Below, one piece after another: positions 44,008 to 64,000 of a stretch of 64,000 nucleotides of DNA. Source of the stretch: Minisyncoccia bacterium (GTDB lineage Bacteria; Patescibacteriota; Minisyncoccia; Phycocordibacterales; UBA918); the NCBI GenBank assembly GCA_046598345.1, contig JBKJIT010000001.1:44251-108250 (forward strand), in the 5' to 3' direction. The notes below the pieces were generated by a model. That model saw only the letters and a program-made list of their open reading frames with translations. It did no database searches and had not been told where the DNA came from. Position 1 is the stretch's first letter. Each line of letters starts with the position of its first letter. The position numbers and the translations under genes are program-made.

Positions 44008-44718
44008 GGCGCCTACGTGTTTATGCATTTTTCACTAAGAACCACTTAGCGGCACCAGAACCGAAGGGTTCATTGTGCCGCCTCGCGCGGTTTTTTTAGT
44101 CAAAAATGCAAGGGGATACGTGTGATCATTGATAAATCCTAGAGGCAAGATCGAGCGCTTTTGGCGCCCTGGTTTCGTCTATAGGAGTTGCGTAACAATG
44201 GTCACGCAATCACATATCCTCGAGACGAGGTTGATAAGGCCTCGTCTCAGAAAAACAAATCCTGCTCGGGAATCGACGCCCGAGTAGGTGCATCTCTCAC
44301 TCAAATGAGAGGTGTCAGGTGAATGTGTAGCGTTTAGATTTTGTGTCATCGACACGGGGTCTTTTCGTCCGCTACACATTCAACACACACAACGTTTCTT
44401 TCACTTAGTATTTTTGTGGAAGAGACAAACAAGTAAGAATTGTACAGCGGTGTACAGAATCAGGTAGGTGAATGTAAAGCACTCGTAAAGCGGTGTATAG
44501 CATTCCCTACAGGATAAAGGGTGTATGGTGGATGCCTAGGTTTCAAGAAGCGATGAAGGACGTGGTATGGCTGCGTTAAGTTCCGGTTAGATGCCAAATA
44601 ATCTATGACCCGGAAATCTCCGAATGAGGAAACTCACCTGCTTACGGCAGGTACCCATGTATGTGGGAGCGTACCCAGCGAAGTGAAACATCTCAGTAGC
44701 TGGAGGAAAAGAAAGCAA

Positions 44719-44813
44719 TAACGGAACTTTCTTTCTGAACGGATGCTTAGCATCCGAACACGAAAGTGCGTAGGGTGCGAAAGTACCATTACGTTCAGGA
44801 AGAAGGTTCTTGC
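44719..44813 (+). other. About 95-nt insertion in 23S domain I
   Basis: Lies between GGAAAAGAAAGCAA and AATTCCCTGAGTAGCGGCGAGCGAA, which are adjacent in E. coli. Contains the hairpin gaacggatgcttagcatccgaac. Confidence 0.55.
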
Positions 44814-45081
44814 AATTCCCTGAGTAGCGGCGAGCGAAACGGGATGAGCCCAAACCATTCGTGTTTACATGGATGGGGTTGTAGGGCAGTAGCGTCATTT
44901 AGTTGAGAAGAGTAAAAAATTGTCGGGATAACAAAACGCGTTGGGAAGCGCGACCCTAGTAGGTAATAGTCCTGTATGTGAAATTACGACAACTCTTTTG
45001 TTACTGTTCCTGAGTAGTTCGGGACATGAATAGCCCGAATGAATCTGGGAGTACTAACTCCTAAGGCTAAATATTCTTGAA

Positions 45082-45127
<46 letters not shown>

Positions 45128-45692
45128 GGAGAGGGGAGTGAAATAGATCTGAAACCATACACTTACAAGGAGTCGCGGCCCTGCGGGGTTGCGGCGTGCC
45201 TATTGAAGAATGAGCCGGCGAGTGTACCTTTGTCCTTTGTCTAAGTGGTAATCCCACGGAGGCACAGTGAAAGCGAGCGTGAATAGCGCGAATATAGGGC
45301 AGGGGTACGACCCGAAGCGGGATGAGCTTGCCATGTGCAGGGTGAAGCGACGGTAAAACGTCGTGGAGGCCCGAACCGGTTGGCCGTTCAAAACCATCGG
45401 ATGACATGTGGTAGGGAGTGAAAAGCTAATCGAATTCCGTAATAGCTGGTTCTCTCCGAAACAGCTTTAGGGTTGGCGTCGCGTGTTCCTCCTGGGGGTA
45501 GAGCACTGGAAGGTCTAAATAGGGCGAAAGCTCGTTAGACCTATCAAACTCCGAATACCAGGTAGTTATAGCGCGGCAGTTAGACTATGGGGGAGAAGCT
45601 CCATTGGTCGAAAGGGAAACAGCCCAGATCGCCAGTTAAGGTCCCTAAATATATGCTCAGTGCAACTTGAGGAGGTGAGGATTCACGAACAA

Positions 45693-45723
<31 letters not shown>

Positions 45724-46576
45724 TAAAGAAAGCGTAACAGCTCACTGGTCGAGAGTCCTTGCGCCGAAGATGATCGGGGCTCAAGCATATTACCGAAACT
45801 GCGGATTTCATATTTTCTTCGGAAAGTATGGAGTGGTAGGAGAGCGTTCTGTTCTGCGATGAAGCCAAGGGGGGACCCGCGGTGGAGCGTACAGAAGTGA
45901 GAATGCCGGCACAAGTAACCGCAACACGGGTGAGAACCCCGTGCGCCGAAATACCAAGGTTTCCTTCGCTATGTTGTTCAGCGAAGGGTTAGTCGGTCCT
46001 AAGCCGATCCCGATCGGGGGAGGCGATGGATAGCAGGTTAATATTCCTGCACACTGTTTTGTTGCGATGGAGGGACGGAGTGTTGTACTCAAAGCATCTT
46101 ATTGGATTGGTGCTGGAGTTATGAGGACGTGAAGTAGGCAAATCCGCTTCGCTCACTTTAATGTGAAGTCCAAGTAAGGTCTGAAAGGGATCCTTCGGGT
46201 GAACTGATTTGGGGAGCACGCTTCCGAGAAAAACTTCTAAGGTTAAACAAAATGGTTCCGTACCGCAATCCGACACAGGTGGTAAGGTCGAGTAGACCAA
46301 GGCGAACGAGTGAGATGCTCTTAAGGAACTCGGCAAAAAAGCGGCCGTAACTTCGGGATAAGGCCTGCCCCTAGCAATAGGGGCCGCAGCGAAAGATTTC
46401 CTGGCGACTGTTTAACAAAAACACAGCTCCCTGCGAACACGTAAGTGGATGTATAGGGGGTGACGCCTGACCAATGCCGGAAGGTCAAACATGGAGGGTG
46501 AAGTGTATTTATATGCTTTGCTGGGCTATGTAAGCCCCGGTCAATGTCAGCGATAACTATAATCGTTCTAAGGTAG

Positions 46577-46770
46577 AGCAATTTTCTTCGGAAAATTGCT
46601 CTAGGACTGGAACGATTATAGGTTAAACATACAAGTGCCAAATGCTACCTTGTATGCAGAAATGCATGCATAGTCCAAATGCAACCAATAAGAGACCAAA
46701 TGTTGCACATCCTCGTCACGTAACAGTGAACGGATGAAGATAGAGTCCTTCTGCAATAAATAGGAAGAAG
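46577..46770 (+). other. About 190-nt insertion in 23S domain IV at the L1931-equivalent site (between CUAAGGU(AG) and AGCGCAAUUCCUUGUCGGGUAAGUUCCGAC)
   Basis: The flanks match the conserved H69-H71 region. The insert starts with an 11-bp stem and UUCG loop (gagcaattttc-ttcg-gaaaattgctc) and ends ...gaagaag. Confidence 0.6.
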
Positions 46771-47409
46771 AGCGCAATTCCTTGTCGGGTAAGTTCCGAC
46801 GTGCACGAATGGCGTAACGACTGGGAAACTGTCTCAAGAGCATGCTCGGTGAAAATACAATGGGGGTGAAGATGCCCCCTACCTGCAGTTAGACGAAAAG
46901 ACCCTAGGAGCTTTACTGTAGCTTCGTATTGGGGCTGTTTGATTAATGCGTAGCATAGGTGGGAGACTTTGAAGCGGGCTTTCGGGTTCCGTGGAGTCGA
47001 AATATGAAATACCACTCTTTAATTGGGCAGTTCCTAACCTCGTAGGCAAAACCTACGAGAGACAGTGCGTGGCAGGCAGTTTTAGTGGGGCGCTACCCTC
47101 CCAAAAAGTAACGGAGGGGTCTCAAGGTTGGTTAGGCGCGAATGGAAACCGTGCCGATAGTGTAATGGCATAAACCAGCTTGACTGTAAGACGTAGGTGT
47201 CAAACAGATGCGAAAGCAGAGCATAGTGAACCGATGGCCCGCGTTAGATGCGGCCGGAGATTACCCGATAAAAGTTACCCTAGGGATAACAGGCTAGTCG
47301 TGCCCAAGCGTCCATAGCGACGGCACGGTTCGGCACCTCGATGTCGGTTCAACTTATCCTGGGGCTGGAGCAGGTCCCAAGGGTTTGGCTGTTCGCCAAT
47401 TAAAAAGTT

Positions 47410-47447
<38 letters not shown>

Positions 47448-48015
47448 CTCTATCTACTGCAGGCGTCGATTCTTGATGAGATTTGTCCCTAGTACGAGAG
47501 GACCGGGATGAACGAACCTCTGGTCTATCGGCTGTCACGCCAGTGGCACTGCCGAGTAGCTATGTTCGGAATGAATAACCGCTGAAAGCATCTAAGCGGG
47601 AAGTCAACTCAAAGATGATGAATCATTAAGTCCCCTGAGAGATGATCAGGTTGATAGGCACTAGGTGTACGTGCAGTAATGCATGCAGCCGAGGTGTACT
47701 AATTGGACGTATTCCTGTAGGGAATGCTGTACATGGCCCACGATGTTGAAATTTGCACATTTCTGCGTTATGCGTCGGGAAACGTTGTTCACTGGACTAA
47801 AATGTCCCGTTCACAACATTTCCCTCGCATGCCTTGAACTGTATTAAATTTTAACATCGTGAAAATAAGCTGTGTACATTTCTACGGATTCTGTACACAA
47901 AAACAATTTTTACAAAGTGTTGTGTGAGTCGATCAAGTCCACGAGGATATGTGATTCTGAAAGCAATGTTTCGGAACTAAATATTGAATATGGTAACAAG
48001 GTTTACCTACCTAAT

Positions 48016-48188
48016 CGGGATGTAGCTTAGTTGGAGAGGTTTTGCGTGTAGCATACAACCACTGCACCATCTGCAGCCGCGATATGGTGAACTGCCGACG
48101 ACAAGTTGGAGGAAGGAGTGGAAACGTACAAAGCCGAGAGTACTAGGACAGTTTCCTAGGAGCGTTGGTTCGAATCCGACCATCCCGA
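48016..48188 (+). tRNA. tRNA-like gene with about 97 nt of additional internal sequence (intron- or insertion-containing tRNA, or tRNA-like processing element)
   Basis: 7-bp acceptor stem CGGGATG / CATCCCG, discriminator A, canonical T-arm GTTGG-TTCGAAT-CCGAC, D-arm-like TAGCTTAGTTGGAGAGG. A candidate anticodon hairpin CTAGG-ACAGTTT-CCTAG lies just before the T-arm. Overall length is 173 nt. Confidence 0.5.
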
Positions 48189-48264: not shown

Positions 48265-48377
<113 letters not shown>

Positions 48378-61885: not shown

Positions 61886-62267
61886 AGCCCCACTGTCCTG
61901 ATCTGGGACATTTTTATTGCCCCGGATTTTGGAGGATAGATGTCATTTGATAACGTTGTATGAAGGTCATACAATTGCATATCGTTCGATCAGTCGTACC
62001 TTTACGATTGGTTGAACAAAACGTATATGTTGCATAAGCAATGTCATTTTGACATTCATATGAAACGGTACGCATCACAAGAATTTGTCGAAAGACAAGT
62101 TCGAAATAAGGCAGAAGTTGATTACAAATATTTTGTATTTTCTTTTGTCTTATCCTTAGGAAATCGTTAAATAGTGATTTGAGAAAAAGTACACTCATCA
62201 CAATACATTTAACAAACAAGATGCACTCAGCCCTTAAAAGCTGAAGCAACTTGTCTTAACTTAGAGT

Positions 62268-63706
<1,439 letters not shown>

Positions 63707-64000
63707 TAATTCCAATTGGATACGTCGTTGCAATCTGGTAACAGAGAGCGAATAACGGCTAATTGGTCGACATTATGTGCCTCAATTGAGCACATAATAT
63801 GGGATGATACTCAACCTCAAAGATAGTATCTGTACTCTACGGAAAGACGTAGCCAAAGGATAAGACAAAAGAGAACACAAACGTTCTGTCGGTGATGATA
63901 TACAGTACAGAAAACAAAAGACCCGATCGCGAAGCGATCGGGTCTTTTGCGTACCTCTTTACCTTGGCCTCATCTGCATGTAGTCAGGCACAATGGGATT

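Follow-up and report, generated by a model that had tools for sequence, protein, structure and literature searches.

Group I introns share a core of which the P4-P6 domain is treated as a universal component. Among group I introns that self-splice in nature, the ∼205-nt IC3 intron in the tRNA-Ile gene of Azoarcus is often regarded as the smallest. It resembles the mini introns described below in being small, ORF-less and bacterial, with an L2 tetraloop that probably docks on P8, but differs from them in its complete P4-P6, its U·G wobble and a guide that adjoins the 5' splice site. The catalytic centre of these ribozymes is located in the P3-P7 domain; P4-P6 serves as a scaffold (PMC6257700). 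A Tetrahymena ribozyme engineered to lack P4-P6 is listed in that paper as the work of Ikawa, Shiraishi and Inoue (2000). Like the mini introns, it consists only of the P3-P9 domain with the catalytic centre in P3-P7. The construct is said to be weak and to need high Mg2+ or polyamine. It is laboratory-made, whereas the mini introns are natural, abundant and conserved and have extra exon clamps.

Group I introns of the IB4 type are known at position L1931 of the large subunit rRNA in bacteria, organelles and archaea (PMC6125680). The same position is a frequent site of 23S introns in CPR bacteria (23IS7), and the endonuclease I-ShaI has been characterised there (PMC11270868). That survey counts 222 ORF-less group I introns in 23S genes, together with many short unclassified inserts, and gives no structural analysis. 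The IB4 introns at L1931 (Thermotoga, Simkania, organelles, archaea, and CPR 23IS7 with I-ShaI) have the same site, exon context and guide logic as the mini introns and have J6/7-P7, J8/7, P3, P8, P9 and ωG in common with them. In contrast to these introns, the mini introns have no P4-P5-P6 and no ORF and carry an A instead of a G opposite the splice-site U. They measure ∼200 nt, compared to ∼230-320 nt for the canonical ORF-less introns that we retrieved and 600-780 nt for those with an ORF. A second kind of short ORF-less insert in bacterial 23S rRNA are the intervening sequences processed by RNase III, but these replace hairpin tips and their ends form one long stem; the mini introns do neither and carry a group I core. 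A full-text literature search for natural group I introns without P4-P6 retrieved no description, which in itself is no proof of their absence. The site and the intron class are thus known, and the domain-deleted architecture and its abundance appear to be undescribed.

A 196-nt insertion at the L1931 site of the 23S rRNA gene

The 64-kb stretch of DNA analysed here (the window) contains a complete 23S rRNA gene on the plus strand (44505-47724), which aligns end to end with the Rfam model LSU_rRNA_bacteria (2408 bits, model positions 1-2925). A single large unaligned insertion, drawn as a 199-nt gap in the alignment, lies between ...UCUAAGGU and AGCGCAAUUCCUUGUCGGGUAAGUUCCGAC. The conserved rRNA stretch ...AACUAUAAUCGUUCUAAGGU / AGCGCAAUUCCUUGUCGGGUAAGUUCCGAC is split by 196 nt (46575-46770, plus strand), inserted directly 3' of U46574, the equivalent of E. 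coli U1931 and a known group I site. The E. coli number is presumed by counting from the landmarks ψ1911/1915/1917 and m5U1939. It agrees with the LSU/1931 of the literature (PMC6125680; PMC11270868).

The dinucleotide AG is present at either border (GGU|AG...AAG|AG), so that excision of 46575-46770, 46576-46771 or 46577-46772 would yield an identical product. Relatives whose introns start with UCUCG... are free of this ambiguity and place the borders after U46574 and after G46770. The original prediction of an insertion at the L1931-equivalent site was borne out by both the alignment and the position of the insert, and its description that the insert begins after a U and ends in G holds for the frame 46575-46770. 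The insert had been given as ∼190 nt (46577-46770). It is real, but has 196 nt; the AG repeat blurs the boundary, and the start had accordingly been placed 2 nt late, mixing two frames. The 3' exon had been quoted as GCGAAAUU, but the window reads GCGCAAUU. Together with short exon flanks (46559-46782, 224 nt), the element has a minimum free energy of −66.9 kcal/mol (z = −5.9), and none of 200 shuffled sequences folded as well.

The same gene contains a 93-nt insert in domain I (44719-44811, Rfam model position ∼228). Its ends pair as a long stem (GGAACUUUCUUUCUGAACG ... CGUUCAGGAAGAAGGUUCU), and its flanks are conserved in related 23S genes while the middle is divergent. In this it resembles a classical intervening sequence processed by RNase III, or else an expansion hairpin.

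The rRNA genes of the window are unlinked and arranged in an unusual order on one strand: 23S, a tRNA-like element, 5S (48267-48374), ∼13.9 kb of protein genes (among them genes for a VWA protein, RodA, a sugar transferase and SecD/F) and finally 16S (62256-63716), ∼14 kb further on. The 16S gene is short (1461 nt, compared to the 1533 positions of the model). The tRNA-like element between 23S and 5S (48016-48188) scores 34.7 bits with the Rfam tRNA model. Its D-loop contains an insertion of 103 nt, and its anticodon loop has the unusual sequence ACAGUUU. ARAGORN called no tRNA in the window, this element included, and a similarity search of related loci found no match to it; one possibility is a processing signal, another a decayed tRNA. 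A weak match to an HDV-like ribozyme in the 23S-5S spacer (47742-47809; 18.4 bits, E = 0.55, gathering score 44) is most likely due to chance.

The insertion aligns with a group I core but lacks P4-P6

A search of the short stretch with the Rfam model Intron_gpI, which the original prediction had suggested alongside the LSU model, gave a match (E = 0.0037) whose 20.5 bits fall short of the gathering score, 50; at the gathering threshold, the 64-kb window contains no Intron_gpI match. The alignment covers P3 (UGCAAC/GUUGCA), J6/7-P7 (AGAGACCAAAUG), P8, J8/7-P7' (GAAGAUAGAGUCC) and P9. The 81 model positions that make up P4-P5-P6 are reduced to a single base, and P3 encloses just 16 nt, CAAUAAGAGACCAAAU. 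The canonical L1931 intron L081, which comes from a Chlamydiae MAG, is ORF-less and measures 233 nt, served as a positive control and reached 72.7 bits with P4, P5 and P6 aligned. Full-length, ORF-bearing relatives also fall below the cutoff, which therefore cannot tell mini introns from full-length introns.

The insert combines a known group I site after a U, a terminal ωG, a P3-P7 pseudoknot with bulged A and a G-C guanosine-binding pair, P8, J8/7 and a guide that can form both P1 and P10. A U·G wobble at the 5' splice site, P4-P5-P6 and a score above the Rfam gathering threshold are missing. There is no homing endonuclease ORF, be it LAGLIDADG or other, and 196 nt are too short for the ORFs of 150-200 amino acids found in relatives. 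Block by block, the insert is homologous to full-length L1931 introns with P4-P6 and a LAGLIDADG ORF. The assignment as a group I (IB4-type, L1931) derivative devoid of P4-P5-P6 is thus supported by sequence comparison. The suggestion of a short or minimal group I intron at L1931 was likewise supported by the Rfam core alignment and this homology, and the reduction is more radical than had been guessed, as an entire core domain is missing.

The missing domain could in principle be supplied in trans, as a P4-P6 RNA from another group I intron or from a separate gene. Many CPR 23S genes carry several introns, and the Tetrahymena core can assemble from separate domains. We nevertheless regard this as very improbable: neither a further Intron_gpI match nor a parental-type P4 or P4' motif is present in the 64-kb window, a similarity search found no second copy of the intron there, and the only other large insert of the 23S gene is the 93-nt hairpin.

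Predicted structure and exon pairings

All elements lie on the plus strand. The last nucleotides of the 5' exon are predicted to engage in two pairings. In the single-sequence fold, the strand UAAUCGUUCUA (46560-46570), which includes the 3' strand of helix 69 (H69), forms 11 bp with the intron strand UGGAACGAUUA (46608-46618), a helix termed P1ext here. The adjoining AGGU (46571-46574) is complementary to ACCU (46647-46650) and would form P1. The intron begins with a hairpin of 12 bp, one more than originally counted (AGAGCAAUUUUC/GAAAAUUGCUCU, 46575-46602), whose UUCG loop had been recognised correctly and which adjoins the splice site. It is followed by GGACU (46604-46608), the 5' strand of a putative pseudoknot (helix X) with AGUCC (46672-46676). 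Downstream of the P1ext strand lies a variable L1 segment (46619-46643) with a semi-conserved UAAAC motif, in which relatives carry extra hairpins.

The internal guide sequence GCUACCU (46644-46650) matches exactly the reverse complement of AGGU|AGC, the junction of the ligated exons. Its GCU can pair with AGC of the 3' exon (P10) and its ACCU with AGGU of the 5' exon (P1), which puts A46647 opposite the splice-site U46574. In canonical L1931 introns, its homologue is CGUUGCCU / GCUAGCCUU. At least 70 nt separate the guide from the 5' splice site; within the P1 'loop' lie the hairpin, one pseudoknot strand and the exon clamp.

P2 (46651-46670) is a hairpin of 8 bp closed by the GNRA loop GAAA. 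The 5' strand of P3, UGCAAC (46680-46685), aligns to P3 of Rfam Intron_gpI and leads directly into CAAUAA (46686-46691), a fused J3/4-J6/7 junction at the expected site of P4-P5-P6. Full-length relatives have P4-P6 at this point, either with an ORF or lacking one. The 5' strand of P7, GAGAC (46692-46696), aligns to AGACUAAA of the Rfam consensus and contains G46692, A46693, which is bulged, and G46694, presumed to belong to the guanosine-binding pair. The 3' strand of P3, GUUGCA (46702-46707), is assigned by both the Rfam alignment and covariation. P8 (46708-46736) consists of CAUCC...GGAUG and an inner stem. J8/7 (AAGAUAGA, 46737-46744) agrees with the Rfam consensus AAGAUAUAGUC and leads to the 3' strand of P7, GUCC (46745-46748), in which C46747 pairs with G46694. 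With the pairs G-C, bulged A, G-C, A-U and C-G, P7 has only 4 bp. P9 (UUCU/AGAA, 46749-46770) ends in the ωG, G46770, and its loop L9 contains AGGA(A). In the 3' exon, AGCGCAAUUCCU (46771-46782), AGC forms P10 and UUCCU is complementary to L9. This last complementarity reads AGGAA/UUCCU in the window and AGGAAU/AUUCCU (+7 to +12) in most relatives.

Three other assignments were considered and rejected. A splice site after U1926, at a U·G pair within P1ext, would leave a 3' border that fails to restore the conserved rRNA sequence. If P1 were an exon pairing with AGGACUGG beside the 5' hairpin, only the H69 part would pair, and GGACU covaries with AGUCC instead. The three copies of CCAAAUG in the window intron are not a family feature, but arise from the P3 strands and their neighbours.

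A large family of mini introns in CPR bacteria

We searched for relatives in two scans. Scan 1 covered one genome per species with the J8/7 core and 3' exon as query and yielded at least 119 loci. The matches listed are L1931 introns from many bacterial phyla, most of them 600-750 nt long; some are canonical introns of 230-320 nt (AUGCGGGAA...AAUCCGCAGG). Also among the matches listed are five short introns from Paceibacterota, Nomurabacteria and Lloydbacteria with the layout of the window. Scan 2 used a layout-specific pattern on metagenomes and yielded at least 120 further loci, 115 with both exons and 96 distinct. Its pattern demanded P7 and J8/7 (GAGACCA and AGAUAGAGUCC) and the 3' exon. 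The invariance of P7, J8/7, GAGACCA and the 3' exon is therefore no evidence for conservation; ωG, the guide, L2, L9 and all covarying helices were not demanded by the pattern.

After removal of members that retain P4-P6, the alignment (A1) comprised 81 mini introns with the window intron as row 1. CPR/Patescibacteria 23S genes thus contain at least 81 distinct mini introns of 191-255 nt (median 209), with a mean pairwise identity of 65% (minimum 49%) in the alignment. All named relatives among the matches listed are CPR bacteria, and the host of the window intron is thus probably one of the Patescibacteria as well. The nearest relative of the window intron in the alignment is 83% identical (L134). 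The hallmarks of the family are the 5' hairpin, GGACU, P1ext, GCUACCU, a GNRA-capped P2, AGUCC, a P3 enclosing only NNAAGAGACCANN, P8, GAAGAUAGAGUCC and a P9 ending in G, and the window intron has all of them. The mini L1931 introns are a large and apparently overlooked family in CPR bacteria in which P4-P6 is wholly lost.

The remaining fold is maintained by compensatory changes

Throughout the 81-sequence alignment, 95.4% of the cells at paired positions hold standard pairs, compared to 78.4% after shuffling, and none of 500 shuffled alignments reached the observed value. Two-sided changes occur in 41 of the 69 pairs. The covariation score was 0.506, against 0.18 for shuffled alignments and 0.06-0.09 when the partners were slid by one to three columns. 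Two-sided changes were found at all 12 pairs of the 5' hairpin, all six of P3, all four of P9, seven of the eight of P2 and four of the five outer pairs of P8, and inner pairs of P8 covary as well. RNAalifold, run without an imposed structure, recovered P1ext, the 5' hairpin, P10, P2, P3, P8 and P9, and its consensus of the mini introns contains no P4-P6-like helix. Every position of P1 and P10 is paired in all 81 sequences, and the terminal ωG is invariant (81/81). Judged from these substitution patterns, the remaining ribozyme fold of the mini introns is evidently under strong selection.

All 5 bp of helix X are present in 76 of 81 sequences, and the partner C is replaced by A in each of the eight sequences with a first base other than G. 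Helix X is also found as GGAU/AUCC in full-length relatives (L189, L205, L154), and relatives without one strand are also without the other. The L2 loop is a GNRA tetraloop in 80 of the 81 mini introns. Nine of the 14 GAAA loops coincide with CU:AG as the step at P8's inner end, and 61 of the 62 GUAA loops with CC:GG; the inner base pair associated with GAAA is U-A, that with GUAA is C-G. In the sister sequences L168 and L223, both the L2 type and the P8 pair differ (A1 columns 205-208 versus 261/316). This co-variation suggests that L2 docks on P8 in a tetraloop-receptor contact, although it derives from about three independent events. The pairing of L9 with the 3' exon is formed in 98.4% of the cells (81 sequences). 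Its exon side is invariant, which makes covariation impossible there.

P1ext has the rRNA exon as its partner and contains four pairs with two-sided changes: C-G/U-A (57/20 sequences), G·U/C-G (44/23), C-G/U-A (63/18) and one with a single A-U exchange. The pairing excludes the mature H69 fold and yet tracks changes in the exon, which argues for a transient structure during rRNA processing.

These results bear on the possibility that the deletion killed the ribozyme and that the 196 nt stay in the mature 23S rRNA, where they would form an expansion segment between H69 and H71. An intron at the L1931 site has been reported as unspliced in Simkania (according to the title of reference 28 in PMC11270868), P4-P6 and the U·G wobble are missing, and CPR rRNAs contain many inserts. 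We still consider such a dead relic unlikely, since the intron strand that pairs with the 3' strand of H69 tracks exon changes in a pairing incompatible with mature H69, since the guide, ωG and the GNRA loop L2, all of them useless to a passive insert, are kept in 81 or 80 of 81 sequences, and since P3, P8 and P9 stay paired despite many two-sided changes. The location of the insert has a further implication. The H69 region forms intersubunit contacts. CPR genomes typically contain a single rRNA copy (PMC11270868). With a single copy and an insert beside H69, retention should be costly.

In a second alternative, removal without ligation, host RNases, for example RNase III, would cut the duplex of P1ext and 5' hairpin and a site near P9, leaving a fragmented 23S rRNA; the original prediction had named an RNase III-processed intervening sequence as an alternative. 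Together, P1ext and the 5' hairpin do give a duplex of ∼24 bp, including an internal loop, at the 5' border, the same gene carries an IVS-like hairpin at 44719-44811, and the CPR survey considers short CPR inserts to be IVS-like (PMC11270868). But the ends of the insert fold as separate local hairpins and are not paired with each other, the site is the junction between H69 and H71 and not a hairpin tip, and the conserved P10/P1 guide to both exons and the covarying core helices would have no role in endonucleolytic removal. The intervening-sequence alternative is therefore not supported, and we regard excision without ligation as quite unlikely.

A possible splicing pathway without the P4-P6 scaffold

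The explanation that we consider probable is that the insert is an IB4-type L1931 intron which has lost P4-P5-P6 and the ORF, persists mostly by vertical descent in CPR bacteria and is still excised by group I chemistry from the 23S precursor. Splicing is favoured by the guide that aligns both exons and by the conserved terminal G, since these features are of consequence solely for ligation. The absence of P4-P6 and of the U·G wobble, a P7 of 4 bp and an Rfam score below the gathering threshold count against it.

Splicing could proceed as follows. The guide GCUACCU would align both exons by P1 and P10. Two extra clamps would hold the exons, P1ext with 11 bp to the helix-69 strand and L9 with +8 to +12 of the 3' exon. 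Helix X (the L1-J2/3 pseudoknot) and docking of the GNRA loop L2 on P8 would then set P1 against the P3-P7-P8-P9 catalytic domain. A guanosine bound by P7 at its pair G46694-C46747 would attack after U46574. Subsequently, ωG46770 would replace this guanosine and the exons would be ligated to ...CUAAGGU-AGCGCAAUU.... Removal may be achieved either by the RNA alone or with a protein helper.

The base opposite the splice-site U is an A in all 81 mini introns and in the full-length intron L179, but a G in canonical L1931 introns and most full-length relatives. From work on Tetrahymena, the U·G wobble is recognised by J4/5, and its replacement strongly slows the first splicing step. As J4/5 is gone together with P4-P6, loss of the scaffold and loss of the wobble fit together. 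More tentatively, the mini introns might be natural autonomous self-splicing group I ribozymes devoid of P4-P6 and the U·G wobble, in which the two exon clamps and the L1-J2/3 pseudoknot replace the scaffold; this is quite possible, although we would not call it probable.

Origin of the mini introns

Longer introns caught by the pattern of scan 2 keep P4-P6 (AUAUGCUGGRAA ... AAUCAGCAGGAAAG). Six full-length CPR introns (L179, L189, L184, L006, L105, L014) share the 5' hairpin, P1ext, helix X, the distal guide and the GNRA-capped P2 with the mini introns, and L179 also has GCUACCU and the L9 loop AGGAA. Unlike the mini introns, they contain P4-P6 as well as a LAGLIDADG gene, which is located in either L6 or P8, and most have a guide G and thus the U·G wobble. 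In L179, L189 and L184, the LAGLIDADG ORF in L6 has 160-200 codons; L006, L105 and L014 form a second CPR group with the same 5' module and a canonical AGACUA core. The occurrence of the 5' module in full-length introns implies that it predates the loss of P4-P6. Four further introns keep P4-P6 and either are missing helix X and P2 or have no LAGLIDADG ORF (L128, L169, L174, L230).

A neighbour-joining tree built from the shared parts places the 81 mini introns in one clade, with the full-length introns L179 and L189 as sister; this tree is rough, being without support values and including three mis-trimmed full-length sequences. In its simplest reading, it suggests that P4-P5-P6 and the ORF in L6 were lost at once by a single deletion reaching from J3/4 to J6/7, and that a long radiation followed. 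If there was a single deletion, the compensatory changes described above would have accrued in the P4-P6-less state. The 23S genes most similar to that of the window (82-90%) host introns that group with the window intron, and the exon variant AAUCGUUC is common to them. The mini introns have thus probably persisted in CPR 23S genes mostly by vertical descent.

Three observations concern other L1931 introns. The position of the LAGLIDADG ORF varies among related CPR introns: L006 and L105 have it downstream of P3', within the P8 region, and L179, L189, L184 and L014 have it in L6, which points to its independent gain or movement within one intron lineage. Some ORF-less introns with a GAGACCA core (L174, L133 and L208 with ∼300 nt, L230 and L135 with ∼345 nt) keep P4-P6 and are without both helix X strands and P2, a pattern of reduction opposite to that of the mini introns. 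Finally, a Terriglobia MAG retains at the same site only 83 nt of a canonical L1931 intron (L089, 3777-3859), apparently the P8 3' strand, J8/7, P7' and P9. This remnant could be a truly dead relic or a chimera that the assembly made of intron-plus and intron-minus copies.

Implications

Mini introns fall below the Rfam threshold, and surveys of CPR rRNA genes may therefore file them as unclassified short insertions. With less than 200 nt, an RNA such as the window intron offers a compact natural system for ideas on minimal ribozymes and for small splicing or circularisation modules. If the mini introns are indeed autonomously self-splicing, they would be the smallest natural group I ribozymes, as judged against the 205-nt Azoarcus intron, and a living equivalent of the 'minimal catalytic domain' obtained by engineering. 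If they function as proposed here, the P3-P9 domain can suffice in nature, and extra exon pairings can replace a scaffold domain.
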